A stretch of DNA of 64,000 nt from a virus (Duplodnaviria; Caudoviricetes), in the IMG/VR virus record IMGVR_UViG_3300021400_000045, positions 32,001 through 96,000 of that record; one strand, given 5' to 3'. Position numbers and translations under genes: made by a program. Positions 3,594-27,559 of the stretch are shown here, piece by piece. Below the pieces are notes generated by a model. It was not told where the DNA came from. It saw only the letters and a program-made list of their open reading frames with translations, and made no database searches. The stretch's first letter is position 1; each line of letters begins with the position of its first letter.

Positions 3594-4043
3594 ATGATCA
3601 GCGGAATCAAATCGAACCAGCGCATCATGAGCTATCGTTTCGTCATTGACCCGAACTTCAGACCGATCTATGGGGAGGACAATGGCCGCCCGATGGTCAA
3701 GCTCTTCCTACAAGACACAGAATACCTGACACGCCAGTTCGACCATGTCAGAACGGAGCATGGTTTTCTCCCGATGATCCCACCCAAAGACAGCCGTGGG
3801 GAGTTCGACGACGAGGGTTGGTACTTCATCACTGCTGAAGTCGTCTCTCTTCCCAGCGGCATTGACATCAACGTCTGGGCAGAAGTCAGAAGCTACGGGG
3901 CCGAGGACGACGGAACCATGTACAAGCTCGACATGTCTGTCTCGGACACTCTGATGGTAGCGCTCACGCTGAACGACCAATGCGTCAACCTGTGGGACGA
4001 CAACCTCGTGACCATGCTGAAAGAGTGCAAGGAAAGCCTGTAA
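3594..4043 (+). CDS. hypothetical protein
   Basis: GGAG RBS; contiguous with neighbours. Confidence 0.7.
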   Translation: MISGIKSNQRIMSYRFVIDPNFRPIYGEDNGRPMVKLFLQDTEYLTRQFDHVRTEHGFLPMIPPKDSRGEFDDEGWYFITAEVVSLPSGIDINVWAEVRSYGAEDDGTMYKLDMSVSDTLMVALTLNDQCVNLWDDNLVTMLKECKESL

Positions 4044-4551: not shown

Positions 4552-5121
4552 ATGGAAACAGTATTCAAGGCCGACGATTTCAACACCATCCTCAAGTCCT
4601 GCGGACTGGCAGTCACTGACAAATACGATGGGCGGGTGGTTCTGCGGAACATCTGCCTCGACATCTGGCGTGACCACTGTGTGGCGGTGGCGTTGGATGG
4701 AACCATCCTGATGCAAGTCACTGTTCCCTGCGAGTCGGATGTGACGGAGAAGACGCGCATCCTGCTCCAGCCCCTGAAGCCGGTGCCCAAGATGACCCAT
4801 GTCGTCATCACATCGCCGGACTCCAGCCCCAGACCGGAGCGGATCGAGATCAACTTCAACCGCTATTCCTACACGGAGTTGACGGTCGTGCAGTATCCCG
4901 TGAAGGGCGATTACGTTGACTACGAGAAGATCATCCCAGCGGAACGCACGGAGTACAGGATCGCTGTCAGCCCGAAGAAGCTGATGACCGTCCTCAAGGG
5001 GATCGACTCCAAGTATGTGTGGCTCTCCTTCGGCAAGCCGCTGGAATCATTCCTCGTCACGCCCACGGATGAAGAGCATGACATCACAGGCCTGGTGCTT
5101 CCGGCTCGGATCAGCTCCTGA
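4552..5121 (+). CDS. truncated beta-sliding-clamp (DnaN)-like protein
   Basis: RVVLRNI...VAVALDG, GDYVDYEKIIP and C-terminal GLVLPAR resemble DnaN motifs (RxxLxG..vAtDG, GxYPdYxxvIP, lvlPvR); only 189 aa. Confidence 0.55.
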   Translation: METVFKADDFNTILKSCGLAVTDKYDGRVVLRNICLDIWRDHCVAVALDGTILMQVTVPCESDVTEKTRILLQPLKPVPKMTHVVITSPDSSPRPERIEINFNRYSYTELTVVQYPVKGDYVDYEKIIPAERTEYRIAVSPKKLMTVLKGIDSKYVWLSFGKPLESFLVTPTDEEHDITGLVLPARISS

Positions 5122-5122
5122 T

Positions 5123-5151
5123 TTGACAGGCCAGAACACGGGCAGTATAAT
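5123..5151 (+). promoter_or_regulatory. sigmaA/sigma70 consensus promoter
   Basis: TTGACA(5123-5128)-17 bp-TATAAT(5146-5151). Confidence 0.85.
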
Positions 5152-5776: not shown

Positions 5777-6934
5777 ATGAAGTTGGGGAGTTTGTTCTCC
5801 GGTTCCGGCAGCTTTGAGCTCGCCGGACTTTTTAATGGGATCGAACCCGTGTTTAATTCGGAAGTAGATGCCTTCCCTGTAGCAGTCACGGATAAACGGC
5901 TCCCCAACGTCAAGCAGTTGGGCGACGTAACGAAGATCAGCGGAGCGAAAGTCGAGCCGGTGGACATCATCACCTTCGGTTCGCCGTGTCAGGATCTGTC
6001 CATCGCCGGTAATCAGGCTGGCATCCATGAAGGAACCAGAAGCTCCCTGTTCTTTGAAGCCATCAGGATCATTAAGGAGATGCGGAATGCAACATCAAAT
6101 CAGTTTCCAAGATTTGCTGTCTGGGAAAACGTCAAGGGATCTCTCAGCTCCCACAGCGGAGCAGACTTCAAAGCCGTCCTCGAAGCGTTCTGCGAAGCCG
6201 CAGGAGCCGACGTTCATGTACCTCTCCCTGAAGTCAACAAAGGGAAATGGGCCACAGCCGGAACCGTCGTGGGAGATGGTTTCTCGATTGCCTGGCGTGT
6301 CTACAACGCCGTCGGTTGGGGCGTTCCCCAGCGCCGTGAGAGAGTCTACCTTGTCGCAGATTTTGGAAGCGAACGTGCCGGAGAAATACTCTTTGAGTCC
6401 GAGAGCGGCGACGGGTATTCAACGCAGAGCTACGAGGCGTGGCAAGCCTTTGCCTTCGGTACTGAAGGAAGCGCTGGACGAAGTGATAGCCAGTGCATGA
6501 TCTGGGATGCCCGTGGCAATGGCGACGGACTCACTTCCCCCACCATCACCGGCGACCACAACAACCGGATCACCGACTATACCGCCGTCATTGTAGAACC
6601 GAGACCTGCGACCCACTACTTCTCCATGCAGCGCTTCGATGAGTTCAAGGAGAGCGATGCGGCATCCACCCTCAAACAGCGTGACTACAAAGATGTAACA
6701 GACATCGTGGTCGAGGAACGGGAACCAATACAGGAACGCAAGTACATCGTCCGGCGGCTGACGCCCACGGAAAGCCTGATTCTTCAGGGCTTGCCGAAAT
6801 GGTGGTGCGATGATGTGAAAGGTCGGTCGGACACAAAGGTCTATCGTCTCAGTGGGAACGGCATCGCTCTCCCCTGCGCGATCGATGTCCTCTATAAAAT
6901 CACCAAAGCATACGACATGAAAGGAGCGGCGTAA
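5777..6934 (+). CDS. dcm: DNA (cytosine-5)-methyltransferase
   Basis: motif I LFSGSG, motif IV GSPCQDLS, motif VI ENV, motif VIII QRRERVY, motif IX RRLTPTE, motif X GNG. Confidence 0.93.
   Translation: MKLGSLFSGSGSFELAGLFNGIEPVFNSEVDAFPVAVTDKRLPNVKQLGDVTKISGAKVEPVDIITFGSPCQDLSIAGNQAGIHEGTRSSLFFEAIRIIKEMRNATSNQFPRFAVWENVKGSLSSHSGADFKAVLEAFCEAAGADVHVPLPEVNKGKWATAGTVVGDGFSIAWRVYNAVGWGVPQRRERVYLVADFGSERAGEILFESESGDGYSTQSYEAWQAFAFGTEGSAGRSDSQCMIWDARGNGDGLTSPTITGDHNNRITDYTAVIVEPRPATHYFSMQRFDEFKESDAASTLKQRDYKDVTDIVVEEREPIQERKYIVRRLTPTESLILQGLPKWWCDDVKGRSDTKVYRLSGNGIALPCAIDVLYKITKAYDMKGAA
6087..6500 (+). CDS. nested +1-frame ORF inside the methyltransferase gene (137 aa)
   Basis: own RBS AAGGAG(6074-6079) 7 nt before ATG6087; C-terminus ESTLSQILEANVPEKYSLSPRAATGIQRRATRRGKPLP looks protein-like. 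Confidence 0.55.
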   Translation: MQHQISFQDLLSGKTSRDLSAPTAEQTSKPSSKRSAKPQEPTFMYLSLKSTKGNGPQPEPSWEMVSRLPGVSTTPSVGAFPSAVRESTLSQILEANVPEKYSLSPRAATGIQRRATRRGKPLPSVLKEALDEVIASA

Positions 6935-8010
6935 TGAGAAAACTTGCAAGCGTTCAGGTCATCTGGAATGTGGAACCCATCGAGGGTGCGGACAGGATCG
7001 AGCTTGTCCATGTCCTCGGCTGGCAGTGCGTGGCCAACAAGGGCCAGTTCAAGAAGGGCGATGTCGGAGTGTATTTCGAGATCGATTCCTTCCTCCCCAT
7101 CCGTGAGGAGTTTGAGTTCCTGCGGGCTTCCTCATACAAGAAGACGGACATCATGGGCGAGGGCTTCAGACTGCGGACTCAGAAATTCCGTGGCCAGCTC
7201 TCTCAGGGACTGGTGCTTCCGCTGTCTGTCTTCCCTGAGATCCCGGCGGACACGCCTGTCGGAACCAGCGTAGCGGAACAGCTCGGTGTCATAAAGTGGG
7301 AGATTGAGGAACGCGCCACCACTGGAGGCACTGTTGCCGGAGTACTCCCCGCCTGTGTGCCTCATACAGACGAGACGCGAGTGCAGAACGAGCCGGATCT
7401 CCTTCAGGAGTTTGCCGGACTGGAATACTACATCACAACCAAGATGGACGGCTCGTCTCATTCGATTGCCATTGACGAGGACGGAATGCACGTCACCGGA
7501 CACAACTTCGAGTACAAGGACGATGGTTCAAGTGCCTTCTACGAGTTCGTGAAGAAGACCGGTATTCTGGAACGGGTCAAAACACTTCACGATATTGTTC
7601 GCGACAGGCACTGGTTCTGTGATGACGGAGAGGAATTGGAATCTCTGGTCGTTCAGGGTGAGTTCTGTGCTCCCGGCATCCAGAGGAACCGCCTGAAGCT
7701 GACGAAGCCGGAATGGTACGTGTTCACCATTATCGTGAACGGCAACCGCCTTGGAATGAAGGATATGGTCATGCTGTGTGACGCCGCTTCCCTGACATAC
7801 GTGCCGATCGATGAAGTGGACACTGATCTTCCATCCAAGTATCCCACGGTGGAAGCCATACTGGAACGAGCGGACGGGCAGTATCCCAACGGCGGGCCGA
7901 ATGAGGGGCTGGTCATCAGGCCGACTGTACCGGTCATATCCAAGACAATCGGAACCTGGCTTTCCATGAAGGCCATCAACAACAAATACCTGCTGAAGAA
8001 TAAGGAGTGA
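6934..8010 (+). CDS. ATP-dependent RNA ligase, DRB0094/Rnl5 family
   Basis: N-terminal MRKLASVQ...IEGADRIE...GWQCV..KG.F..GD..VYFEIDSFLP; nucleotidyltransferase motifs TKMDGSS, QGE, EGLV, KAIN. Confidence 0.88.
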   Translation: MRKLASVQVIWNVEPIEGADRIELVHVLGWQCVANKGQFKKGDVGVYFEIDSFLPIREEFEFLRASSYKKTDIMGEGFRLRTQKFRGQLSQGLVLPLSVFPEIPADTPVGTSVAEQLGVIKWEIEERATTGGTVAGVLPACVPHTDETRVQNEPDLLQEFAGLEYYITTKMDGSSHSIAIDEDGMHVTGHNFEYKDDGSSAFYEFVKKTGILERVKTLHDIVRDRHWFCDDGEELESLVVQGEFCAPGIQRNRLKLTKPEWYVFTIIVNGNRLGMKDMVMLCDAASLTYVPIDEVDTDLPSKYPTVEAILERADGQYPNGGPNEGLVIRPTVPVISKTIGTWLSMKAINNKYLLKNKE

Positions 8011-13214: not shown

Positions 13215-13946
13215 ATGGAAAAGAAAGACGAAGTCGCCGAGCTGAATTTGTATCAGCGTCTGGCAAAGGTGCGCGATATCGCCGATGTCGTACAGAAGAA
13301 CAAGAGTGGGTATGGCTACAAGTACACATCGGAGGACGAGATCCTCGCAAAGGTCAAGGCCGGTATGTCCAAGTACCGTGTGTCTGTGTATCCGCGAGTG
13401 GACACGGAGTCCTTTGAAAACGTGCCGCGAGAGTATGAGAAGAGCAAGTACGACAAGTCCGCTGGGAAGATGGTCACCACCAAGGAAGTGGAATGGGTCG
13501 TGCGCGGGGTCGTCATGTACAAGATCCTGAATGACGATAACCCCGAAGAGTTCTTCGAGGTTGCGTGGCCCATGTGCGGAACGCAGTCGGACATGTCTCA
13601 GGCTTTCGGCTCCGCGCTGACCTACGCCAACCGCTACTTCTATCTGAAGTTCTTCAACATCGCCACGTCCGAGGATGATCCCGATGAGTGGAAGCGCAAG
13701 AAGATGGAAGCCGCAGAAGCGGAAGACAAGGAAGCCGCCGACGCTATGATCCAGCGGATCGACGACCTCTGCAAAGAGATGGTCACGGACGCGAACAAGG
13801 CCGAGGTGACCAGCCTGATCAAGAAGTACGCCACCGACGGCGGCAAGCCGACGGCCAATTACAAGCGGATCAGGAAGCTCGACGAGGCCACCAAACTGTA
13901 CACCGCACTGACGAACTACTTTAATGATGTCAAGGAGGAAAAGTAA
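13215..13946 (+). CDS. ERF-family ssDNA annealing protein
   Basis: KNKSGYGYKY; QAFGSALTYANRYF...FNIAT.EDDPD ERF motif. Confidence 0.88.
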   Translation: MEKKDEVAELNLYQRLAKVRDIADVVQKNKSGYGYKYTSEDEILAKVKAGMSKYRVSVYPRVDTESFENVPREYEKSKYDKSAGKMVTTKEVEWVVRGVVMYKILNDDNPEEFFEVAWPMCGTQSDMSQAFGSALTYANRYFYLKFFNIATSEDDPDEWKRKKMEAAEAEDKEAADAMIQRIDDLCKEMVTDANKAEVTSLIKKYATDGGKPTANYKRIRKLDEATKLYTALTNYFNDVKEEK

Positions 13947-14434: not shown

Positions 14435-15184
14435 ATGAGTTCAGTCTTGTTTTCAGACTGGGTCTGGAGCTACAGCCGTCTCACTCTGTATGAACAGTGC
14501 CCCTATGCGTTCGCGCTCAAGTACATCTACGGCGAGCCTAACGGCCAGACCAACTTCTACGCCGGGTTCGGTACGTACATGCACCGCATACACGAGCTGT
14601 TCTATACCGGAGTCCTGAAGCAGGAAGACCTCGTCCCCTACTACATCGAGCACTTCGATGAAGTCGGGTATCACAAGGGCCGCAGCAAGTACTTCGTGGA
14701 AGGCCTCAATTATCTGGAGGGCGGGATACAGGTTGTCCCGTCCTCTGTTCTTGGGGTGGAGCAGGTGATCAACTTCAAGGTTGACAAATACGACTTCACC
14801 GGCGTCATCGACCTGCTGTACAAAAACGCAGATGGAACGCTCACGATCTGTGACCACAAGTCCCACCCGCTCCAGCCGCGCTCGAACCGGAAGAAGCCAA
14901 CGGCCAGCGACCGCGAACTGGACTCCTATCTAAAACAGCTTTATCTCTATGCCCACGGCGTTCATCAGCTGGGGTTAGGAGATGTAGGGGTGCTCCAGTT
15001 CAACTGCTTCAGGATTGCTAAAACATTGGATAATATTTATTTGAAAGAGAAGGAAGAGGAAGCCGTGGCGTGGGCGGTCGACACCATCAGGTCAGCCGAA
15101 AACGCGGAGCGGTTTCCTCCGTTCCAGGACTGGTTCTATTGCCATAATCTGTGCGACCACCGTGAGGTGTGTGAATACAAATAA
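14435..15184 (+). CDS. PD-(D/E)XK (RecB/Cas4-like) nuclease
   Basis: SYSRL..Y.QCP, GVIDL, DHKS, QLYLYA, terminal CxxxC..C. Confidence 0.85.
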   Translation: MSSVLFSDWVWSYSRLTLYEQCPYAFALKYIYGEPNGQTNFYAGFGTYMHRIHELFYTGVLKQEDLVPYYIEHFDEVGYHKGRSKYFVEGLNYLEGGIQVVPSSVLGVEQVINFKVDKYDFTGVIDLLYKNADGTLTICDHKSHPLQPRSNRKKPTASDRELDSYLKQLYLYAHGVHQLGLGDVGVLQFNCFRIAKTLDNIYLKEKEEEAVAWAVDTIRSAENAERFPPFQDWFYCHNLCDHREVCEYK

Positions 15185-15189
15185 GGGGG

Positions 15190-17163
15190 ATGGGTATGGA
15201 GCAGATATCGAAAGAGTCTATACAGGAAGCAAAGGAAAAGCTCGGAGACAGACAGGCGGACATGATCGCCGATATCCTCTCCCTCAAGCAGTATAACCCG
15301 TCCAGGCACATCGCCTGCTGTCCTCTGCACGACGACAAGACACCGTCCTTCAGTTACAACGCCCGGAGCGGAAGCTATTTCTGCTTCGGGTGTCATCGTT
15401 CTGTGGACATCCTTGACGCGTGGATGATGAAGGGCGACACGTTCCTGCAAGCGGTGGAAAAACTGTTTCAGGAAGCGGAGATGCCGCACAACTTCTCCTA
15501 TCGTGGCGTCAGGGATAATGAGGAGACGGAGTTCTGCTACCCTGAACCGAAGTACGCCCCGTCCAAGGAGCATGTGTACGCCTACTGGAAGAAGCGCTGT
15601 ATCTCCCCTGAGACCATCGACGCGATGGACGTGCAGGAAGATCCCGACGGCAACACTTTGTTTCAGTTCTACGACTCGGCAGATGTGCTCCGCGCCGTCA
15701 AGTTCCGCCCCTCCCGCCCTGTGCCCCACGGCGAGCGCAAGTGCTGGTGGATGAAGGACGAGAAGAACCGTGACCTCAAACCCTATGTCGGGCTCCTGTT
15801 CAATCAGCACAAGCTTAACATCTCGGAGCCAATCATCATCTGCACCGGCGAGGGTGACGCGATGGCGGCGTATGAGTGCGGCTTTCACAACGCCTCCAGC
15901 ATTCCCGGCGGCGATCAGAACCTGAACTGGGTCTCCTATCAGTGGGGCTTTCTGGACAAGTGCCACCAGTTCGTCCTCGTCTATGACAACGATGACTCCG
16001 GCAGGAAGTACATCAAGGAGATTACGCGCCGCCTCGGCGAGGAACGCTGCAAGGTGGTAGATCTCCCGGAGACCTGGGAAATGCCAGACGGCTCCACAAA
16101 GCGCATCAAAGACCTGAACGAGCTCTTGTTCTACGGCGGCAAGGACGCCGTCATTAACGCCATCAACAATGCGCAGGAGCGGCAGATCGAGTCTGTCATC
16201 GACTGCTCCGACGTGCAGGATATCGACATGGACGGCATCGACGGCATGAAGACCGGCTTCAAGGAGCTGGACTCCTGCATCAACCGCTCCTACTGTGGCA
16301 CAGTGTCAATCGTCACCGGCGTCCCCGGCGCTGGCAAAACGTCCTTCCTCTCCACCATCATCAATGAGGGCGTGGATCAGGGCTTCCCCACCTGGGTCTA
16401 CTCCGGCGAGCTTTCCAATAACGCGCTCAGAAACTGGACGATCAAGTGCCGCGCCGGTCAGTACTGGCTGGACAAGGTGGAGCGTGACGGATTCACTTCC
16501 TACCAGATCAGGCCCGAAGCCATCAAAAAGATGGACGAGTTCTACCGTGACAAGCTCCTCTTCTTCAAGGACACCTACGACGCCACGCCTGATGCGCTCT
16601 TCCACTCGCTGGAGTCCTGCGTCAGAAAGTACGGTGTGAAGATGGCTGTGATCGACAACCTGTCTTCCGTCAACCTCGGCTCCTTCGGTGACAAGTACTG
16701 GGACATGCAAAACCAGTTCATCCGCGATTGCATTGCCACGGCGAAGCGGCTGGATGTGGTCATGTGGATCGTCCTGCACCCCAAGAAGATGGTGGAGTTC
16801 AACCACGCGCCCGAACTGTATGATCTGTCCGGCTCTGTTTCGGCGGCGAACCTCGCGCACCGCGTGTTCTCCCTGTACAGGGTCAAGGAGGAGGATCGCC
16901 AGCCCGACAAGAACGGCAAACGCCGCCCGTACACGGACTGCTCCGTCCAGCTGCACATCATCAAAGACCGCTTCACCAGCGCTCTGGGCCGCGTCTATCC
17001 CCTGTACTATGATCCCAGCAGTCGCCGCTTCTACGATAATCTGGATACCCTCAGGAAAAACTATGCGTGGGATACGCAGGAGCACAAGGAGCCTCTGCCT
17101 TATCTGACTGAGGAACAGCTGCGCATGGCCAGCGGGGAAGCCGACGATAGCGATCCGTTTTAA
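15190..17163 (+). CDS. fused primase-helicase (CHC2 zinc finger, TOPRIM, DnaB/SF4 helicase)
   Basis: CCPLHDDKTPSF...CFGC; TGEGDAMA, YDNDDSG; Walker A GVPGAGKT; IDNL; HPKK; IKDR. Confidence 0.92.
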   Translation: MGMEQISKESIQEAKEKLGDRQADMIADILSLKQYNPSRHIACCPLHDDKTPSFSYNARSGSYFCFGCHRSVDILDAWMMKGDTFLQAVEKLFQEAEMPHNFSYRGVRDNEETEFCYPEPKYAPSKEHVYAYWKKRCISPETIDAMDVQEDPDGNTLFQFYDSADVLRAVKFRPSRPVPHGERKCWWMKDEKNRDLKPYVGLLFNQHKLNISEPIIICTGEGDAMAAYECGFHNASSIPGGDQNLNWVSYQWGFLDKCHQFVLVYDNDDSGRKYIKEITRRLGEERCKVVDLPETWEMPDGSTKRIKDLNELLFYGGKDAVINAINNAQERQIESVIDCSDVQDIDMDGIDGMKTGFKELDSCINRSYCGTVSIVTGVPGAGKTSFLSTIINEGVDQGFPTWVYSGELSNNALRNWTIKCRAGQYWLDKVERDGFTSYQIRPEAIKKMDEFYRDKLLFFKDTYDATPDALFHSLESCVRKYGVKMAVIDNLSSVNLGSFGDKYWDMQNQFIRDCIATAKRLDVVMWIVLHPKKMVEFNHAPELYDLSGSVSAANLAHRVFSLYRVKEEDRQPDKNGKRRPYTDCSVQLHIIKDRFTSALGRVYPLYYDPSSRRFYDNLDTLRKNYAWDTQEHKEPLPYLTEEQLRMASGEADDSDPF

Positions 17164-17217
17164 CTTTCGTTTATCTTATGACTTGAATCAAGTTACGATA
17201 CATTTTGAGGTTAAGAT

Positions 17218-17445
17218 ATGAAAAAAGAAGAACGCGATATCATGGCCGATATGTTCTACTTCCTGCGCGACTTCGGCGATCCTCCCCCTCCCGGCACAAA
17301 GGAGAGTGCCCCCTTCTGGGAGAAGGCATCTGACTCCATCGCCTCCGTCGTGGGCAAGAAGTGGCAAAACCATCCACTTGCCATGCAGGTCGGTATCACC
17401 ATGTACAACTACATCGTGGACAAGAGCAAGGGTGTGATCGGGTGA
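17218..17445 (+). CDS. hypothetical protein
   Basis: GAGGT RBS; 75 aa. Confidence 0.65.
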   Translation: MKKEERDIMADMFYFLRDFGDPPPPGTKESAPFWEKASDSIASVVGKKWQNHPLAMQVGITMYNYIVDKSKGVIG

Positions 17446-17491
17446 TGGATAAGTGGACAGAACTGCGGGAGACCATATAGGAGAACAAAGT

Positions 17492-17836
17492 ATGATAGAT
17501 TATAGTCTTGCCAAACAGACAGACGAACTCAAAAGGCTGATCACAGAGCATCCAGATTATCAAATCGTTGTGCTTGCTGGTGAGGAGGCAAACGGCGGCG
17601 ATTATACGTGGATGTGCTGTAGCGATGTCAGGTTTGCTACCGGTGAAATCTTAGACACAGACTATTACGATTATAACGATACCATTATTACCGATAGAGA
17701 GCGTCTTGAAGAAATAATAGAAGATCGTCTTTATGATGAGTTAAAAGGCGATGAGCTTGACAAAGCCGTGAAAGACAAGATGGCAGAGCTTGAACCGTAT
17801 TGGAAGAATGTTATTTTTATATACGCAACAAACTAA
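17492..17836 (+). CDS. cassette gene 1, hypothetical acidic protein
   Basis: ATG 8 nt after TAGGAG; stop TAA inside next repeat. Confidence 0.8.
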   Translation: MIDYSLAKQTDELKRLITEHPDYQIVVLAGEEANGGDYTWMCCSDVRFATGEILDTDYYDYNDTIITDRERLEEIIEDRLYDELKGDELDKAVKDKMAELEPYWKNVIFIYATN

Positions 17837-17852
17837 AATAGGAGGATAACGT

Positions 17853-17987
17853 ATGAACGTGTTCTTTGCTATGTTTGGTGTTGCGATTGGAGTGTTGCTA
17901 TATCGCCTGATTATCGCACCAATTGAACGCAAAAAGGCCAGAGAAGAATGTATCCGTAAAGGCCTTGTGCCGCGTGGCAAGACTTAA
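17853..17987 (+). CDS. cassette gene 2, 44-aa membrane peptide
   Basis: MNVFFAMFGVAIGVLLYRLII...; bounded exactly by repeats. Confidence 0.7.
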   Translation: MNVFFAMFGVAIGVLLYRLIIAPIERKKAREECIRKGLVPRGKT

Positions 17988-18002
17988 ATAGGAGTTTAGA
18001 AG

Positions 18003-18110
18003 ATGATTGAATGGCTTATGGCACATATCATCGAGGTGTATTACAAGATAGTTGAGATCGCATATGGAAAGTATACTTTTAAGAAATGCTATCGTATTCA
18101 TTTGCGTTAA
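18003..18110 (+). CDS. cassette gene 3, 35-aa peptide
   Basis: MIEWLMAHIIEVYYKIVEIAYGK...; bounded exactly by repeats. Confidence 0.6.
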   Translation: MIEWLMAHIIEVYYKIVEIAYGKYTFKKCYRIHLR

Positions 18111-18126
18111 ATAGGAGGTTTAGTGC

Positions 18127-18438
18127 ATGAGTAGTATGCCATTTACTATTGGGCTTTCGGTTGTTGACCGTCTGGAGCCAGTGGATGGTAGTGTAATACT
18201 TCGGACGAAAACCCGTGATGAAATGAGCGATGAAGTAAACCGTATTCAGGAAATGCTATCAAAGAACGACTTAATTAAGGTGTGCCCTATTGGTTTAAGG
18301 CCGGATAAGCCGATACCAACAGCGATGTATTTTACTGAAATTTGTATTAGCAAAAACAAGGCCGAAGAATGGATGTTTTCATTAGGACTATTTAGCGGTG
18401 CCTGGCCTTGTGTTGTCACGGGGAGAGCGGTAACTTAA
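18127..18438 (+). CDS. cassette gene 4, hypothetical protein
   Basis: 103 aa; bounded exactly by repeats. Confidence 0.75.
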   Translation: MSSMPFTIGLSVVDRLEPVDGSVILRTKTRDEMSDEVNRIQEMLSKNDLIKVCPIGLRPDKPIPTAMYFTEICISKNKAEEWMFSLGLFSGAWPCVVTGRAVT

Positions 18439-18454
18439 ATAGGAGAATAAGACA

Positions 18455-18628
18455 ATGACCGTAAATGATGCCATGCGTGAGTTCCGAAAAGCCAAAGATG
18501 CAATCGACACACTCGACCGATACAGTCACGGCGAAATGCCAAACATAGCGGAACAGCACGTTGACGAGATACGCGAAATGCTGGAACATTATATGGATAT
18601 GATTGCAAAACTGAAGATAGTCGAATGA
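18455..18628 (+). CDS. cassette gene 5, 57-aa helical protein
   Basis: MTVNDAMREFRKAKDAID...KIVE*; bounded by repeats. Confidence 0.7.
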   Translation: MTVNDAMREFRKAKDAIDTLDRYSHGEMPNIAEQHVDEIREMLEHYMDMIAKLKIVE

Positions 18629-18648
18629 CTTAAATAGGAGTTTAATAC

Positions 18649-18849
18649 ATGACGAATGAAGAAGCGATAAAAGCTATAAGGGCAAATTGGCCACCAGAAA
18701 ATTACTCTATACTTCGTGAAGCATTGACGCTTTCCATTCGTGCTCTTAGTGAAGAAGATCAACATTCAAAAAGTTGCTCTTACTATGCAGAGAACGGCAA
18801 GAAACCTTGTTGCACTCATGATTGTGATGGGTGTGTGTGGTATGTTTAA
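18649..18849 (+). CDS. cassette gene 6, hypothetical Cys-rich protein
   Basis: MTNEEAIKAI..NWPPENYSILREAL...; bounded by repeats. Confidence 0.75.
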   Translation: MTNEEAIKAIRANWPPENYSILREALTLSIRALSEEDQHSKSCSYYAENGKKPCCTHDCDGCVWYV

Positions 18850-18876
18850 GGTTGACTTAAATAGGAGTTTAAGACA

Positions 18877-19197
18877 ATGGGAACCGTACAAATAAACAGA
18901 CAGGCAAAGTATAAGTCAGAGGAATATACAGATCTGGAGATGCCGTCTGATGATATGGATGACTATCTGGAAAACTATCACAGCAAACTTGTTAAGGCAA
19001 GAAAAGAAACCAAGTGTCATTACTGCGGAACAACTATCAAAGCAGGCGATCAAGCGCTGAGTGAAAAGTGCTTTATCGATGGCAAGCCTTATTACATCCA
19101 TGACTGTCTTGACTGCGTGGAAGACGTCATAAAAGGATGGGATGACGAGGCACAGACCAGATGGGAGCAGAGAGCAAAGGAATCGGGATATATTTAA
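18877..19197 (+). CDS. cassette gene 7, zinc-binding protein
   Basis: KARKETKCHYCG..I..GD...CLDC; bounded by repeats. Confidence 0.75.
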   Translation: MGTVQINRQAKYKSEEYTDLEMPSDDMDDYLENYHSKLVKARKETKCHYCGTTIKAGDQALSEKCFIDGKPYYIHDCLDCVEDVIKGWDDEAQTRWEQRAKESGYI

Positions 19198-19226
19198 TGA
19201 TCGTAATCAAAATAGGAGGTTAAATC

Positions 19227-19349
19227 ATGGAGAAAGTAGCAATCGAGTTCACGAAAGAAGAGTTCGACAAAATCATTGAGTTTATGGATGGTGGCGAATA
19301 TGAAACCGTCCAGCAGGCTATTATGGCGGCAGTCGAAAACGCAGGATAA
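19227..19349 (+). CDS. cassette gene 8, 40-aa peptide
   Basis: MEKVAIEFTKEEFDKIIEFM...; bounded by repeats. Confidence 0.65.
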   Translation: MEKVAIEFTKEEFDKIIEFMDGGEYETVQQAIMAAVENAG

Positions 19350-19369
19350 CTAAAATAACACTTTTATAC

Positions 19370-19440
19370 GCGGTGCCTGGTTCTCAGCAAGTTCGTTCGC
19401 ACTACTGGGCTTAATTTTACGTTCGATTCGTAAAGCCGCA
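19370..19440 (+). ncRNA. tRNA-like structured element (non-canonical)
   Basis: T-arm TTTACG-TTCGATT-CGTAAA, closing stem GCGGT/GCCGC+A, internal stem GCCTGGT/ACTGGGC; no canonical D or anticodon arm. Confidence 0.45.
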
Positions 19441-19461
19441 GTCAATTCTATGAGGTGAAAC

Positions 19462-20634
19462 ATGCCAAACTACACCATGTATCACTGTCACAGCGATTAC
19501 AGTCTGCTGGACAGCTGCACCAAGTTCGATGATTACATCGCGCTTGCCAAGCGGGACGGCATGACGGCTATCGGGTCTACGGAGCACGGTCTCCCCAGGG
19601 GCAACATTCATAAGATGATCGCCTGTCAGGAGGCTGGCCTCAAGTTTCTCTACGGCGTCGAGGTCTATCTGACCAGATCGCTGTCGGGGGACAAGGTCAG
19701 GGATAACTACCACACCGTGCTGATCGCGAAGAACCATGATGGCATGAAGGAGATCAACCTGGCCGTCAAGCTGGCGTCCAGAGACGACCACTTCTATTAC
19801 CAGCCGCGCATGACCTTCGATGAGCTGACCCGGCTGTCAAAAAACGTCATCGTGATCTCGGCCTGTATCGCGTCGCCCATGAGCAAGCTACCCGTCAGCG
19901 ATCCTGACTATCAGAAACTGCTCAACCGTTACGATTATCTGGAGATCCAGCACCACGATAACCCCGATCAGGCGGCGTACAACCAGCACCTGTACCAGCT
20001 GTCGCTGGAGACGGGCAAACCACTCATCGCTGGGACAGACACCCACTCTTCCACACCGTACAAGGCAGAGTGCCGCGACCTGCTGATGCTTGCCAAGGGC
20101 AAGTCCTTCCCCGATGAGGAGACATTCGACCTGACCTACAAGACCTACGATGAGCTGGTGGCAGCCTACGAGAAGCAGGCCGCGCTCCCCCGTGATGTCT
20201 ACCTTCAGGCGCTGGAGAACACCAATGTCATGGCGGCAAGCGTAGAAGAGTTTACAGTGGACAGGAGCAATAAGTATCCCATCTCCTATGGCTCCGCCGA
20301 AGAGGATGTGCGGAGGTACAGAGAACTGACCTGGCAGATGTTTGAGGATAAGCTGAAGAACGGTGTGATACCGAGGAGCCAGGAAGATGCGTTCAGGAAG
20401 GCGATAGAAGAGGAGCTCGCTACGTTTGAAAAGCTTGGCATGTGCGGCTTCATGCTGTCAGAGAGCGAGCTCATTCAGTGGTGCCATGCCAACGGCATTC
20501 CGACCGGCCCTGCCCGTGGTTCTGTCGGCGGTTCGCGGGTAGCCTATGTCACGGACATTATCGATATGAACCCAGAAGACTACGGCACGATTTTCAGCAG
20601 GTTCTGTAACGAAAATCGTGTAGAAATCGGTGAT
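19462..20634 (+). CDS. dnaE: DNA polymerase III alpha subunit, exon 1 (PHP domain and start of palm)
   Basis: HCHSDYSLLDS, STEHG, GVEVY, TDTH, GPARGSVGGS, FSRFCNENR..GD. Confidence 0.93.
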
Positions 20635-20959
20635 TAACCTTGGTCACCCTTTGCAGTAATGCATCGAAAATAAGCTGGTGAACCAACACATGTTGGGTGT
20701 GCGGCAATTGCCGTGCTAACGGTGAAAGCTAAACCGAGAGGCATGCTAATACCGTGGTAAGCCTTTGGGAAAGGAGGTAACCATAAGGTTAGCTGTGGTT
20801 ATCGGCTTATTAAGCTTCCGAAGGAAACTGTAACGACTATCCAGACAGGAGTAGCGTAACGGTGAAATTCCGTTATGTGAAGCGCCAGCCTCCGCAACTA
20901 TGCGGATGAAGATATAGTCTACTCCCCTAATAAATATCGGGAAACCGAGGGTATAAAGG
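20635..20959 (+). mobile_element. group I intron (ORF-less, 325 nt) in dnaE
   Basis: 5' exon GGTGAU pairs with IGS GTCACC (U-G at splice site); P3 GCTGG/CCAGC; P7 GACTAT(20835)/ATAGTC(20914); ends in G; removal restores in-frame GD|IDTD. Confidence 0.9.
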
Positions 20960-22972
20960 ATTGACACAGACCTGATCGACACCGATAGGACGAAGGTATT
21001 CCAGCATATCATTGAAAAGTTCGGCGAGCGCAAGACGGCCCGTGTTTCGGCCTATGGCACGGTCGCTGACAAGGGCGTGATCGACGACATCTGCCGTGGT
21101 CTCAAGACACGCTGGGTGAAGGAAAACCGGAAAGACCTGAACCCCAAGACATTCAAGGATGAGATGATTCCCGAGTGCCCGTTCACACTAAAATCGGCGG
21201 ATAAAATCAAGGCCGAGTATATGAGCAACCAGACAGCCGCCAGGCAGAAATATCCCGACGTCTTCTACTACTTCGATGGCACGGTCAACACCATCGTCAG
21301 CCAGTCCATCCACGCCGCAGGCATCGTCATCTCTCCGGTCACCCTGGACGACAACTACGGCACGTTCTGGAATAACGGTGAGCACTGCCTCCTGCTCGAT
21401 ATGGATGAGGCTCACGACGTGGGCATGTGCAAGTATGACATGCTGATCCTGACGAACGTGAAGATCATCGCCGATACCTACAAAGCGCTGGGGAAACCGT
21501 TCCCTAAAACGCACGAAATCGACTTCAATGATCAGGCTGTATGGGAAGACATGCGTCGAAGCCCTTACGGCATCTTCCAAATGGAGAGCTCGCTTGGGTA
21601 CAACTCCCTGTGCAAGATGAAACCGACCAGCATCAAAGAGATGGCGTTGTTGACTGCGTCAATCCGTCCGTCTGGAGCGTCATACAGGGACGATGTGTTT
21701 GCCCGAAAGGTACACGCCAACCCCACCAAGGAGATGGACGAACTCTTTAAGGACAACTTCGGCTTCTGCGTCTATCAGGAGGACATCCTGCGTGCTCTGA
21801 TCGAGCTTTGCGGATTCAGCGGCAGTCAGGCAGACACAGTGCGGCGAGATATCGCAAAGAAGAATCCTGAGAAGGTCGCCAAGGATATCGTACTAATCAA
21901 ACAGGGATATATCGAGCGTTCCAATAAACCGATGGAAGAGGCCGAACGCGATGTGGCAGACCTGCTTCAGGTCATTCAGGACGCCAGTGGGTACTCCTTT
22001 AATAGCTCGCACGCAGTCGCATATTCCATTGTGGGCTTCATGTGCGCCTATTGCCGCTACTACCACCCCCTTGAGTTCTGTACCGCCTACCTGAACGGTG
22101 CTCACTCACAGGACGATATCGCCCACGGCACACTGCTGGCACAGCTTTATGGCATCAAGGTGGCGTCGCCAACCTTCGGCCACTCCAGCAGTGAGTACAC
22201 CTTTGACAGGGCTACCAATACCATCTATCAGGGGCTGGAGTCAGTCAAGGATCTGTCGTCAGGTATCGGCGAGAAGCTGGCAGAGGTGGAGAGCACCTTT
22301 GCTCCTACCGGCAAAAACCGTTTTATGGACGTCGTCTGGGCGCTGAAACTTGCCGGTATCGGCAATAAGCAGATCGAGATACTGATCAGCATCGGGTACT
22401 TCAAGGATTTCGGCAACCCCAACAAATTACAGAAAATATTTGAGATCGCGTCCATGCTCAAGTTCGGCGAGCTGACCTGGCTCTCCAACGAGAAGAAGAT
22501 CACAATCTTCGGGAGCCGCGACGATGAGGTTTCCCAGTATGCCGAGCGCAGGACGGAGAAGAACTGGCGCGTTAAGGATGGCAAAGGCCTGATCGGTCTG
22601 GTCGAGGATATTATCCAGAAGCAGGACATCCAGCCGCCCGCCCTCAGTGACAGGCTCGCAACGTGGAAGGAATACCTGGGCTACGTCCCAGCGCTGGGCA
22701 GCAACTACCGCTCACTGCTCTATGTCTCCGAGCCTCCGCGCCCGCTATATGCCAAGAAGTCGGGTAAGCTCTGGGCGTACAGCGTTATGGCAATTTCGCT
22801 CAGAACTGCCGAAGTGCATGAGTGGACGATCCCCAGAGAGATGTACGTACACAACGTTCGCGAGGGCGATCTCCTGCGCGTCATCGGTGGTAAGAACGGG
22901 TATATGAAGAAAGAGTACATGGGCGTGATGCGATATCATCTGCTCGACTATCAAATCGTAGATAACTTATAA
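20960..22972 (+). CDS. dnaE: DNA polymerase III alpha subunit, exon 2
   Basis: IDTD, SIHAAGIVI, KYDML, GIFQMES, IRP, VYQED, YSFNSSHAVAYS, YYHPLEF; spliced product about 1061 aa. Confidence 0.93.
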   Translation: MDTDLIDTDRTKVFQHIIEKFGERKTARVSAYGTVADKGVIDDICRGLKTRWVKENRKDLNPKTFKDEMIPECPFTLKSADKIKAEYMSNQTAARQKYPDVFYYFDGTVNTIVSQSIHAAGIVISPVTLDDNYGTFWNNGEHCLLLDMDEAHDVGMCKYDMLILTNVKIIADTYKALGKPFPKTHEIDFNDQAVWEDMRRSPYGIFQMESSLGYNSLCKMKPTSIKEMALLTASIRPSGASYRDDVFARKVHANPTKEMDELFKDNFGFCVYQEDILRALIELCGFSGSQADTVRRDIAKKNPEKVAKDIVLIKQGYIERSNKPMEEAERDVADLLQVIQDASGYSFNSSHAVAYSIVGFMCAYCRYYHPLEFCTAYLNGAHSQDDIAHGTLLAQLYGIKVASPTFGHSSSEYTFDRATNTIYQGLESVKDLSSGIGEKLAEVESTFAPTGKNRFMDVVWALKLAGIGNKQIEILISIGYFKDFGNPNKLQKIFEIASMLKFGELTWLSNEKKITIFGSRDDEVSQYAERRTEKNWRVKDGKGLIGLVEDIIQKQDIQPPALSDRLATWKEYLGYVPALGSNYRSLLYVSEPPRPLYAKKSGKLWAYSVMAISLRTAEVHEWTIPREMYVHNVREGDLLRVIGGKNGYMKKEYMGVMRYHLLDYQIVDNL

Positions 22973-23920: not shown

Positions 23921-24595
23921 ATGCAAGTAGAACTGCTTTCCCACACCATTGACCCGTTGTTTACCTGTGAAGAAGCGGCATGCGAGTGCTACGACTCCGT
24001 GCCGGACATCGAACATCCTACGCGCATCCTCAGTGCGTGTATCAAAAGCGGGCATCAGTCCGTCGCCGAACACGCCACATTTACCTTCAAGATCAGTGGC
24101 ATCAGCCGCGCCTGTCTGGCCCAGCTTACGCGCCACCGTCTCGCGGCGTTCTCCGTGCGCTCCCAGCGCTACTGCAAAGAGGATGATTTCGGCTACGTCA
24201 CGCCGCAAACCATCGCTGACAACCCCGACGCCGCAGAGATCTACCATGAGCTGATGAACACCATCAGCCACGCCTATACCTATCTCACGGACAAGTGCGG
24301 TATCCCCAATGAGGATGCCCGCTTCGTGCTTCCCAACGCCTGTGAGACATCGCTGACCATGACCGTCAACCTGCGCGAGCTCATCCACATCTGCCACGAA
24401 CGCCTGTGCAACCGCGCCCAGTGGGAGATCAGTGAGCTGGTACAGCGTATGGCAAATTGCGTGACTGATGTTGTCCCAGAAGCAGAGGTCTGGCTGGTGC
24501 CCAAGTGCGAGACAAACCCAGACTATCCCTTCTGCCCGGAGCGCAACAGCTGCGGTCGCCATCGCAAACTTTCGGAGGTGTACGAAGATGAGTGA
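23921..24595 (+). CDS. thyX: FAD-dependent thymidylate synthase
   Basis: GHQSVAEH, ISRACLAQLTRHR..FSVRSQRY, EDARFVLP, RAQWEI. Confidence 0.95.
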   Translation: MQVELLSHTIDPLFTCEEAACECYDSVPDIEHPTRILSACIKSGHQSVAEHATFTFKISGISRACLAQLTRHRLAAFSVRSQRYCKEDDFGYVTPQTIADNPDAAEIYHELMNTISHAYTYLTDKCGIPNEDARFVLPNACETSLTMTVNLRELIHICHERLCNRAQWEISELVQRMANCVTDVVPEAEVWLVPKCETNPDYPFCPERNSCGRHRKLSEVYEDE

Positions 24596-25252: not shown

Positions 25253-26689
25253 ATGATTCAACAAATGGTTCCCGATAAATACGAAAGATACAGAGCTGAT
25301 TTGAATTTTATCAAGAAATACAGCAAGGCCGTCAATGCCGCTACTGGCAGCGAGGTCGATGCCAATTCCAATGTCAGCAACAAGAATATCGCCACGATGG
25401 CCACGGAGATTCACAAGAAGGCCAACATCTACGCCAATCGTCTGGCGATGCACGACAAAATCAAAGAGCTTTACGGCGAAGATCTCGCCGATGAATATAT
25501 CAGACAGCTTGAAAACCACGAGATATATAGACACGACGAGAGCGGCACGCCGATTGGAACGCCCTACTGCATCAGTATTACTATGTACCCGTTCCTGCTT
25601 AACGGTCTTAGTACTCTCGGCGGTTCCAGCACGGCTCCTAAGAACCTTGACTCTTTCTGCGGCGGTTTCTGCAACCTGGTGTTCCTGATTGCGGCGCAGT
25701 TCGCTGGGGCTGTGGCAACTCCAGAATGGCTGGCGTATATGTCTTACTTCCTGATCAAAGAATACGGTGAAGATTACTACAAACGCGCAGACGAGGTTGT
25801 AGAACTCGGCAATCATCCGCGTACGATCAAGGATATCATTCATGCGAAGTTCCAACAGGTAGTTTATACGCTTAATCAGCCCGCCGCCGCTCGTGGAAGT
25901 CAATCAGTCTTCTGGAACGTGGCCGTGTTCGATGAACCATATTTCAAGAGCCTGTTTGAAACATTCTACTTCCCGGACGGTACGGCGATGGTCGATATCT
26001 GGGACTCTGTCAATTGGCTTCAGAAGACATTTATGAAATGGCTGAACCACGAGCGCACAAAGAAAGTAATCACCTTTCCTGTTCTCAGTGCAAGCCTTTT
26101 AAACGATGGAGAGAAGTATGTCGATCAAGAAATGGCCGACTGGGTGGCTCAGATGTATTCCGAGGGAGATAGCTTTTTTACCTATACGAGCAATTCTGTT
26201 GATAGTCTGTCAAGCTGCTGCCGCTTGAAATCCGAGATCCATGAGAACACCTTCAGCTACACTCTCGGCGCTGGCGGCGTTGCCACTGGCTCCAAGTGTG
26301 TTATGACGATGAACCTGAACCGCCTGGTGCAGAACGTTGCACGGGCTAACCCTGAATGCATTGGCGATGAACTGTTCCCGAAAATCTCTGAAGCTGTAGC
26401 CATCCAGACAGAAAAGATCCACAAGTACCTGACTGCCTTTAACGAGATCCTCAAAGAGATGCTCGCCAACCATATGCTTCCTGTATATGAGGCTGAGTAC
26501 ATTTCTCTTGAAAAGCAGTATCTCACAGTCGGCACGAACGGTCTGAATGAGGCAGCTGAGTTCCTTGGCATCGAGATTTCTGACAACCAGCTTTACCGTG
26601 ACTTCGTCGAGGCTGTCTTCCGTCCAATCTCCGAGATCGATAAGAGGGACAAGACGAAGGAAATTATGTGGAATACAGAACAAGTGCCT
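25253..26689 (+). CDS. nrdD: anaerobic ribonucleotide reductase, exon 1
   Basis: IYRHD...PYC, QFAGAV, LNQPAAARGSQS, TFPV, SSCCRL, GSKCVMTMNLNR. Confidence 0.92.
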
Positions 26690-27559
26690 CGCCACTAATC
26701 TCAAGTGGGCACTATAAACCCGATCTAATTGACTTGGAACTCCCTCTGGGACAACAAGGGGCAAGCGTAATGGTAGCCTGAACGACTAAATGATTGGGCA
26801 CACGAAAGTGTGATGCGATAGTCTGAACTGCATGGCAACATGCAGAGGCGCGATCAGGTGTATCCAGACACCTTTGGAAGAACCGCGCCCGTCTGATAAT
26901 TATTATTCCATATAGAAGGAGGTGATATATATTGAAATGTAATTACTGCGACAGAACGGATAATGATTGCAGAATCCGTAGATTGCATGGCGAATATCTT
27001 TGCCCTAAACATTACTCGCGTCTCTATAGAAAAAGTGATATGCATGGCAGAAGTATATACGATGCTAATGATTATGTTTTATATGACGATCACGCAGAGA
27101 TAATCTTGAGAGACAAGAAGTGCAATGAGGTGGCACGAGCGATTATTGATCTTGATGACGTAGAAAAATGCAAGCAGTATAAGTGGCATGCAAGAAAAAG
27201 TCTGAACCACAAAGGCTACTATGTTATTGCATCATTGCACGGACAAAACAATGAAAAGCTTCACCTGCACAGACTTATACTTGATTATTACGGCGAATTA
27301 GACGTAGATCATATAAATAGAAATTCATTGGATAATCGTAAGTGTAATTTAAGGGCAGTAGACCATAGTACTAATGCTGCCAACAATAATCATACTGGTG
27401 TTAGGCAGGCTCCTAGCGGCAGATGGACGGCGTCTTGTACTCGAAATTATAAATCAATATATATCGGTACTTTCGATACTCAAGAAGAGGCGCTTGCAGC
27501 ACGCAGAAGCTTTGTTGCGGCACTCGCATCATAAACAATTATCAGATGGTAACAGATTG
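26690..27559 (+). mobile_element. group I intron (870 nt) in nrdD carrying a homing endonuclease
   Basis: exon GTGCCU pairs with IGS GGGCAC; P7 GACTA/TAGTC; ends in G; removal gives in-frame EQVP|AENLG. Confidence 0.9.
26932..27534 (+). CDS. HNH homing endonuclease with AP2-like C-terminal domain
   Basis: LHRLIL...VDHINRNSLDNRKCNLR; GV...GRW.A...IYIGTFDTQEEA..AR; GGAGGTG RBS; AT-rich. Confidence 0.9.
   Translation: MKCNYCDRTDNDCRIRRLHGEYLCPKHYSRLYRKSDMHGRSIYDANDYVLYDDHAEIILRDKKCNEVARAIIDLDDVEKCKQYKWHARKSLNHKGYYVIASLHGQNNEKLHLHRLILDYYGELDVDHINRNSLDNRKCNLRAVDHSTNAANNNHTGVRQAPSGRWTASCTRNYKSIYIGTFDTQEEALAARRSFVAALAS

Follow-up and report, generated by a model that had tools for sequence, protein, structure and literature searches.

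The array described here lies in a stretch of 64,000 nucleotides (the window, to which all coordinates refer unless stated otherwise) that corresponds to positions 32001-96000 of the virus record IMGVR_UViG_3300021400_000045, a complete ruminant-gut phage genome of 116,012 bp with terminal repeats (G000). The stretch is held by sequencing runs of goat, bovine, sheep and other gut metagenomes from 12 studies. Between a resident gene encoding a primase/helicase of the DnaG-DnaB type (15190-17163, + strand; Pfam Zn_ribbon_DnaG, Toprim and DnaB_C; PHROG 239 with 1.7e-81) and the resident N-terminal part of dnaE (19462-20637, + strand; Pfam PHP and DNA_pol3_alpha), eight short open reading frames (ORFs), named cassettes c1-c8, are separated by nine copies of a conserved junction. 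The original prediction had described this region as an integron-like array of single-gene cassettes, in which the putative recombination site contains the Shine-Dalgarno (SD) sequence. All nine junctions were recovered, a single + strand ORF fills each of the eight intervals, and by blastp c1-c8 were found to be unrelated to each other.

On the + strand the left edge of the block is formed by a hybrid junction (junction 1, 17471-17490), in which GACCATA, not the consensus left arm, precedes TAGGAG and the right arm belonging to c1. The order is then c1 (17492-17836, 114 aa, with a PHROG match), junction 2 (17832-17851, ACTAAAA-TAGGAG-GATAACG), c2 (17853-17987, 44 aa, hydrophobic in its N-terminal half), junction 3 (17982-18001), c3 (18003-18110, 35 aa), junction 4 (18105-18124), c4 (18127-18438, 103 aa), junction 5 (18433-18452), c5 (18455-18628, 57 aa), junction 6 (18628-18647), c6 (18649-18849, 66 aa, Cys-rich at the C-terminus, PHROG 30902 with 1.4e-9), junction 7 (18855-18874), c7 (18877-19197, 106 aa, with CxxC...CxxC motifs, PHROG 19515 with 3.4e-13), junction 8 (19206-19225, ATCAAAA-TAGGAG-GTTAAAT) and c8 (19227-19349, 40 aa). 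The right edge is a variant junction (19349-19368, ACTAAAA-TAACAC-TTTTA), which keeps the left arm and has TAACAC in place of TAGGAG. No above-threshold Pfam match was obtained for any of c1-c8. PHROG matches were limited to c1, c6 and c7, and none of these PHROGs has a known function; for c4 neither a family match (Pfam, PHROG) nor a relative in IMG/VR was found.

The cassettes are more AT-rich than their flanks, as had been suggested from spot counts (GC 40-46% versus approx. 55%). The GC content at third codon positions (GC3) was 0.28-0.51 in the cassettes and 0.74-0.81 in the flanking genes, with 0.81 for the primase/helicase gene and 0.74 for dnaE. A further ORF of 75 aa (17218-17445, + strand) precedes junction 1; its GC3 of 0.74 is resident-like and places it outside the low-GC cassette pool, and it had no family match and no match in four close relatives of the phage (L001-L004, described below). 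Since the cassettes are foreign by GC3 and the 75-aa ORF is not, we took 17478-19368 as the block proper. The motif AAATAGGAG was confined to the array in the whole 116,012-bp genome, in line with the earlier remark that it was not seen at other ribosome-binding sites (RBSs). Seven copies occur, all on the + strand and within 1.4 kb (17836-19218), against an expectation of 0.21, and none of 100 shuffles reached seven; around TAGGAG outside the array in the same genome, the bases are random. Start codons follow 8-9 nt downstream of GGAG. The motif includes the upstream stop codon for c1-c4 and comes after it for c5-c8, which agrees with the earlier count of four such cassettes. The claim that evident promoters are absent was supported as well: within 16900-19600 no sigma70-like site was found where 5.7 were expected, and no + strand terminator was found in the same interval. 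Because each junction carries or closely follows a stop codon and provides the next SD, the block is most likely expressed as one message from upstream with closely coupled translation.

Related arrays were collected by scanning IMG/VR with the 16-mer CTTAAATAGGAGTTTA. From 52 sites in 11 records we derived the consensus T[AG]ACTTAAA-TAGGAG-TTTAA of approx. 20 nt, and further out nothing was conserved. Across the carriers the spacing from junction to ATG is 3-11 nt and all copies are on the coding strand; the junction copies are direct repeats with 9-20 identical bases. Conservation is strong in the left arm, which reads ACTTAAA in 18 of 60 sites, whereas the right arm varies past TTT. The base before AGGAG was T in 27 of the 32 array SDs of five genomes, while SDs outside the arrays of these genomes read AAGGAG or GAGGAG and T is rare. 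Pairing with 16S rRNA thus does not explain the motif.

The inverted repeats around a 6-bp spacer, on which the original prediction had built its comparison with recombinase core sites, turned out to belong to the consensus alone. The right arm shows little conservation and there is no covariation between the two arms of one site, their complementarity being 3.83/7 compared to 3.82/7 for shuffled partners. RNA folds of the junctions were weak (-3 to -6 kcal/mol, z -1 to -2.9) and mostly no better than those of shuffles. A selected RNA or DNA hairpin was ruled out by the weak folds and the absent covariation. That attC hairpins are missing had been stated before and agrees with conservation over approx. 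20 nt only, the weak folds and a cis complementarity no better than with shuffled partners. Two kinds of promoter were likewise rejected. The T7/T3 type was considered as ACT..ATAGGAG resembles ...CACTATAGGGAGA, and was dismissed because nothing is conserved upstream of -8; for a sigma70 or T4-late-type promoter no site was found, and the start point would fall after the SD.

Four IMG/VR contigs (L001-L004) encode a primase 86-88% identical to that of G000. In all four the dnaE gene, which is 81-85% identical at the nucleotide level, starts 14 to approx. 320 nt after the primase gene and the cassette block is absent; window 17164-19461 is therefore an insertion relative to these phages. A complete relative of 107 kb (G001) is syntenic with G000 at 60-90% amino-acid identity. 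In its genome [TA]AAATAGGAG is present ten times without mismatch, distributed over two arrays of small genes at other loci (80.8-81.8 kb and 100.9-103.2 kb). Where G001 has the second of these arrays, two neighbouring genes of G000 are separated by 98 nt, and at the locus of the first G000 has different genes without the motif. No motif was found at either of the empty sites read in relatives. In these two close relatives, three different positions thus either hold an entire array or lack it. As a separate observation, a protein of approx. 185 aa without a family directly follows an array in both G001 (82474-83037; L021 4475-5041) and the phage G007 (L066 2623-3174), the two copies being 56% identical although the phages are unrelated; it is absent from G000, G005 and G006.

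Clusters of the motif were also found in phages of very different genome size and composition, among them the complete genomes G006 (46 kb, GC 58%), G007 (69 kb), G005 (116 kb, GC 45%) and G008 (148 kb), each with the motif restricted to a single small region. With G000, G006 shares only one ORF of 100 aa or more, and G007 only four. Nevertheless, c8 recurs in the unrelated phage G006 with 88.7% nucleotide identity over 159 nt, terminal site included, and G007 has the 5' half of c8 at 90% identity. A different cassette occurs in both G001/G002 and G006, with 89-95% identity. Cassette c1 is 91% identical at the nucleotide level to a cassette at a different locus of G001/G002; this identity begins at the AGGAG of one junction (junction 1, window 17479) and stops at the last G of the next TAGGAG. 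A search at the protein level, independent of the motif, added two contigs with c1. The four c1 copies have three different left contexts and four different right-hand neighbours, all of them joined after AACTAAAATAGGAG, and junction 2 is the breakpoint common to these four contexts. Cassette c7 occurs as a solo cassette, approx. 97% identical, at a locus with 61% GC of a 42-kb contig (L092). Here the motif stands on the left, and on the right the left arm of c7's own following junction, AATCAAAATA, is fused to ACAC; this is the G000 arrangement minus c8, which is cleanly absent. The motif and the first 33 nt of c6 are shared with a cassette of G008, after which the two sequences diverge.

The proposal that homologues of the cassettes would be flanked by the same motif held for close relatives (at least 88% amino-acid identity) and failed for distant ones, as homologues of c1 and c7 at 45-77% identity sit in other phages without the motif. 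The motif goes with a pool of cassettes and not with a gene family. Three gut phage contigs with such distant c1/c7 homologues (L204, L205 and L096; for instance L204 826-2900) show a recurrent junction of their own, …GGTGAAGTGGGA-ATG, before many small genes, and array-specific conserved RBS junctions may be common. Two tandem copies of a cassette were noticed at the start of another contig (L069 of G010, reverse-complement 3651-4000). Spaced by 223 nt, they match at every position for no less than 127 nt, and each starts at a junction, with differing left arms (AATCAAA and AACTTAA). The arrangement resembles unequal exchange, but it lies at a contig end.

We compared where homology ends in 24 array-bearing loci. 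Sixty of 102 internal ends, which are not independent events, fell within 15 nt of a junction core, compared to 5.4% of positions. Approx. 40% of the ends lay away from a junction: some exchanges end inside ORFs (c6 with G008, c8 with G007 and G006), and others seem to stop in the few bases that separate right arm and ATG, for example c7 of L092.

Contigs from other samples provided variants of the block itself; for the runs X2, X3, X4 and X7 the covered parts of the stretch were interpreted. A contig of the goat-gut run X4, which stems from a different study, carries a joint from 18432 to 18855, between junction 5 on the left and junction 7 on the right, so that c5 and c6 are absent, and 13 bases, ACTTAAATAGGAG, fit both sides of this joint. 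In a second contig of the same run position 19208 is joined to 19352 and c8 is absent, the left arm of junction 8 being fused to ACAC as in L092. A contig of run X3, a second sample of the source study, has a joint from 17482 to 17832, with c1 absent or replaced. Many contigs from other samples diverge from the window at a junction, and some have other sequence joined at 19353-19370. Cassette c4 was present in runs X2, X3, X4 and X7; in X2 and X7, from two studies, it is followed by the TAACAC variant, which in X3 follows c3. In run X4 the contig departs from the window at junction 2 and c2 is followed by a different cassette beginning MTVKELIE. In a bovine sample, a G000-like phage has its terminal site and dnaE leader attached to the tail of that cassette. 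These contigs were presumably built with 31-mers; the shared motif is at most approx. 20 nt, and collapse of repeats should therefore not create such joints. The expectation that relatives would lack or reorder cassettes was borne out, with the breakpoints in the motif. These comparisons show that cassettes are lost, gained and re-joined at copies of the junction, and that the pool of cassettes is common to related and unrelated phages of one habitat.

The terminal ACTAAAA-TAACAC-TTTTA site is a second core form and not a decayed copy. Behind the same left arm, a TAACAC core stands at the end of arrays or within them in G001 (twice), G004, G005, G006, G009, G011 (twice), G012 (twice) and L092, and downstream of these sites lies unrelated resident DNA with its own SD. 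Since many phages have arrays that finish with a TAACAC core behind this left arm, the motif is not just an SD. When IMG/VR was scanned for the non-SD form CTTAAATAACACTTTA, 84 stretches with exact matches were found (loci L122-L199), compared to 39 for the SD form. Some matches are clonal coincidences inside genes; several dozen are intergenic, just past a stop codon and 10-30 nt before a strong SD. Some arrays contain both TAGGAG and TAACAC cores. At L157 the two forms abut (…CTTAAATAACACTTTAAATAGGAG…), whereas the same cassette in G001 has the short form, and the difference between the two arrangements is a 12-nt unit between TTAAATA repeats. Some of the TAGGAG junctions of G007 and G008 stand 16-19 nt from the ATG with a second SD in between. 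The idea that the arms are kept independently of translation, first put forward for the last site of the array, thus holds more widely and includes sites where the motif cannot act as an SD. The TAACAC core keeps the left arm without an SD, and something other than ribosome binding must accordingly preserve this arm. The arm is either the homology through which recombination takes place or the bearer of a further function.

Some further features were seen around TAACAC sites. Many CTTAAATAACACTTTA sites are followed by a semi-conserved stretch of the type A[AT][CT]CAC and then by a strong SD. In G011 (L070, reverse-complement approx. 5090-5150) a near-consensus sigma70 promoter (TTGACA, 17 nt, TAGAAT) is found approx. 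20 nt past the TAACAC site, and the end of the array there coincides with the start of a new transcription unit. The 11-mer GCGGTGCCTGG occurs both within c4 (18399-18409) and just past the terminal junction (19371-19381), and the similar GCGGTGGCT follows a TAACAC site in G001; both are perhaps due to chance.

Upstream of the block, just 5' of the primase gene and at a distance of 2-4 kb, lie genes for an Erf-family single-strand annealing protein (13215-13946, + strand; Pfam ERF, 2.3e-17) and a Cas4-like PD-(D/E)XK nuclease (14435-15184, + strand; Pfam PDDEXK_1, 3.1e-20). These two probably represent the phage's own general recombination functions and are candidate catalysts for the exchanges. 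The module was present in G000 and G001 and was not detected in G005-G007. On the right, dnaE consists of two ORFs in the window (19462-20637 and 21077-22972). The gap between them (20625-20941, + strand) gave a full-length match to the group I intron model RF00028, which is sub-threshold (27.3 bits versus a gathering threshold of 50, E 7e-4); the length of the gap varies among relatives, L001 having approx. 500 nt more. Around the replication module we also noted genes for ThyX (23921-24595), an NrdD-like anaerobic ribonucleotide reductase (25253-26698) and an RNA ligase (6934-8010), and ThyX is among the few proteins that G000 has in common with G005 and G007. A blastn search of the region against 50,697 GenBank phage records returned zero matches, and the closest primase in these records is 36% identical.

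The explanation that we favour, with moderate confidence, is that the junction is a portable unit of stop codon, SD and start spacing, which doubles as a short homology for general or microhomology recombination, as do the promoter-early stem-loops (PeSLs) of T4-type phages. The region 17478-19368 would then be a foreign, promoterless block of eight small accessory genes placed between the primase/helicase gene and dnaE. It would be transcribed by read-through from the replication operon, and each junction, which holds the upstream stop codon or sits a few bases after it and provides the SD of the next gene, would end one ORF and start the next. Recombination between copies of the junction, within one genome or between co-infecting phages or prophages, would delete, duplicate or exchange whole genes in register and always restore the stop-SD-start boundary. 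The most likely routes are slippage during replication, or a switch of template, between direct repeats spaced 120-360 nt, the phage Erf protein with the nuclease, or host RecA, the last in the setting of a co-infection or of resident prophages. Cassettes that keep consensus flanks would stay mobile, and this by itself might preserve the motif.

Several points weigh against this explanation. The identity in common is only 9-20 nt, which is short for RecA-type recombination, and in G005, G006 and G007 no ERF, RecT or AAA_24 annealing protein was found. General recombination alone leaves unexplained why TAACAC is conserved letter for letter in dozens of phage contigs, and why arrays end right after its right arm, beside unrelated resident DNA. 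In packed arrays every boundary is a junction, so selection against intragenic breakpoints would also enrich for ends at the motif. The evidence is, moreover, all comparative and drawn from assembled contigs. The joints in contigs from other samples are not open to the argument from packed arrays, and they provide evidence independent of it.

It is possible, though in our view unlikely, that the motif is primarily regulatory, in the manner of stoperators or of the start-associated sequences (SAS) of mycobacteriophages, and is bound on mRNA or DNA by a protein or RNA of host or phage that controls translation or transcription of early accessory genes, recombination being a by-product of repetition. 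The architecture is SAS-like, with an ATAGGAG core, symmetric outer bases, a position near starts in one orientation and an association with non-structural genes (PMC3203893). T is kept at the position where SD pairing would favour A or G, the motif is retained where it is unable to serve as an SD, and the letter-for-letter conservation of TAACAC suggests a sequence-specific reader. However, no candidate phage regulator is common to the unrelated carriers; such a reader would thus need to be encoded by the host or borne by a cassette, and no cassette is universal. The hairpins are weak, at -3 to -6 kcal/mol, without covariation of the arms, and regulation by itself does not account for the exchange of cassettes across phages. 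A regulatory role is compatible with the portable-junction explanation and does not exclude it.

A dedicated site-specific recombinase is less likely than the general short-homology routes. In an integron- or shufflon-like system, the 7-6-7 junction (ACTTAAA / TAGGAG or TAACAC / TTTAAnn) would be recognised as a core site by a recombinase of the tyrosine or another type. This enzyme, from the host or from a gene that escaped recognition, would excise and insert single cassettes, and the two cores would be its two spacer classes. We hold this to be quite improbable. About equally improbable is a dedicated and probably host-encoded system in the form of a 'mini-integron', with 18-20-bp sites doubling as stop codon and RBS, in which TAGGAG and TAACAC mark internal and terminal sites and single genes are moved between unrelated rumen phages. 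Such systems would fit the precise cassette boundaries, the defined right end beside unrelated resident DNA, the two discrete cores with the same left arm and the TTAAA...TTTAA symmetry of the consensus around 6 bp, and sites as short as 19 bp are known from the Rci/shufflon system. At least one tyrosine recombinase is indeed encoded in every complete carrier genome, with PF00589 matches in all five (G000, G001, G005, G006 and G007); G000 encodes two, one of them in the window (33751-34962, - strand) and the other at 17980-18864 of the genome. Yet the enzymes of unrelated carriers are at most 25% identical and not adjacent to the arrays, being 4-17 kb away in the four genomes where the distance was read, which tells against a co-occurring tyrosine recombinase, for which the original prediction had suggested a test. 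A tRNA-Thr integrase had been named as one candidate; ARAGORN finds no tRNA in the window. The only family common to all five genomes besides the cassettes is a small zinc-ribbon protein, which was rejected as the common enzyme since the similarity is a weak one of Cys motifs and the protein is not an enzyme. A common annealing protein was ruled out in the same comparison, with ERF in G000 and G001 only and RecT or AAA_24 in none of the five. Within a site the right arm, itself little conserved, shows no relation to the left one. The same left arm is joined to both cores (L092 and run X4), which counts against a classical tyrosine recombinase, as this would be blocked by spacer heterology. Breakpoints inside ORFs or between right arm and ATG, and empty sites without the motif, are further difficulties. 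Finally, an 18-mer scan of 185,579 representative prokaryote genomes revealed no arrays, no prophage arrays and no clue to the host; it gave 18 isolated single matches in AT-rich genomes, where approx. 17 were expected by chance as estimated from the size of the collection. Of the original proposal of a gene-capture or shuffling system, the shuffling part stands, with cassettes lost and reordered at the motif, and the integron or tyrosine-recombinase machinery is not supported, as none is conserved among the carriers, although a host enzyme may still be involved.

Common descent with selection only, from one low-GC donor lineage of which the junction is the ordinary RBS context and with breakpoints at the motif because illegitimate recombinants survive at gene boundaries, would agree with the similarly low GC of the cassettes whatever the GC of the recipient, with the closeness of motif-flanked copies (at least 88% identity) while distant homologues lack the motif, and with the recurrent RBS contexts that other phages have in their own small-gene regions. 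It is nonetheless very unlikely, as no genome was found with the motif genome-wide (at most 10 exact copies per record, always clustered), the deletion joint uses 13 nt of the motif itself as common sequence, c1 is joined to four neighbours at the identical base, random illegitimate joints would give novel boundaries whereas every boundary matches the consensus, and the non-SD TAACAC form is no RBS context.

Among the known systems with which the array can be compared, the shufflon has short, asymmetric 19-bp repeated sfx sites between small coding segments. These sites are inverted and serve to invert C-terminal pilin segments via the linked rci gene, whereas the junctions described here are all direct and have no linked recombinase. 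For lambdoid phages (the modular theory of Susskind and Botstein; HK620/HK97), homologous exchange is reportedly proposed to be guided by short conserved sequences where modules meet. They resemble the junctions as short conserved boundary sequences between otherwise unrelated units, but they are sporadic, stand at module boundaries and not at every gene of an array, and are not stop/SD units. With integrons the array shares co-oriented, promoterless and mutually unrelated cassettes of one gene each, acquired and lost individually, reading of the array from outside and a pool common to several replicons. In contrast to integrons there is no conserved IntI-type recombinase beside the array, there are no attC hairpins of 57-141 nt, and attI/Pc is missing at the head, where the first junction lacks the left arm; in addition the junction supplies the SD, which attC sites do not. 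The array lacks three of the four features that define an integron.

Of the motifs described so far, the SAS GGGATAGGAGCCC of cluster K mycobacteriophages comes closest. It is located 3-7 bp before start codons, has flanking bases that are conserved though unable to pair with 16S rRNA, and is still of unknown function (PMC3203893, PMC12699233). Both motifs have the ATAGGAG core, symmetric outer bases and an upstream stop codon that sometimes lies inside the repeat, and the junctions, like SAS, were found a few bases before starts, in one orientation and before unrelated gene families of non-structural character. The 13-bp GGGATAGGAGCCC itself was not found here with up to two mismatches, the flanks being TTAAA/TTTAA as opposed to GGG/CCC in SAS. 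Moreover, SAS are scattered over half a genome and do not form contiguous arrays, and they belong to a different host group. The SAS text that was consulted reports no cassette exchange at these sites (PMC3203893, PMC12699233).

The PeSL system of T4-type phages is the closest described mechanism. PeSLs combine a sigma70-like promoter, a stem-loop terminator and an SD (PMC2839356, PMC4122927); their shuffling needs no integrase (PMC2839356), and mini-circles have been demonstrated (PMC2839356, PMC4122927). In both cases intergenic repeats ending in an SD flank small orphan genes in variable regions, and recombination between copies of the repeat inserts, deletes or replaces single genes between phages, as was found in the present comparisons. 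The junction differs from PeSLs in lacking both a sigma70-like promoter (zero versus 5.7 expected) and a stable stem-loop that could serve as terminator or attenuator. It also overlaps the stop codon of the preceding gene, exists in a further core form without an SD, and occurs in unrelated phages, whereas PeSLs occur within one T4-like lineage. With approx. 20 nt we take it to be three to four times shorter than a PeSL. Population-level evidence from independent ruminant-gut metagenomes shows here that twenty bases suffice to make small phage genes interchangeable cassettes across phages that have almost nothing else in common, with expression guaranteed wherever a gene lands because the junction supplies the stop codon, the SD and the start spacing. 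This offers a concrete mechanism for the trade of phages in accessory genes. Small early phage genes often act in host takeover or against host defences, and a motif scan of viromes is a way to enumerate the mobile small genes in circulation across a habitat. With its paired TAGGAG and TAACAC forms the junction provides a handle for separating translation from recombination. We concluded that the junction array is a minimal version of the linker-mediated gene shuffling of T4-type phages and not a demonstrated integron.

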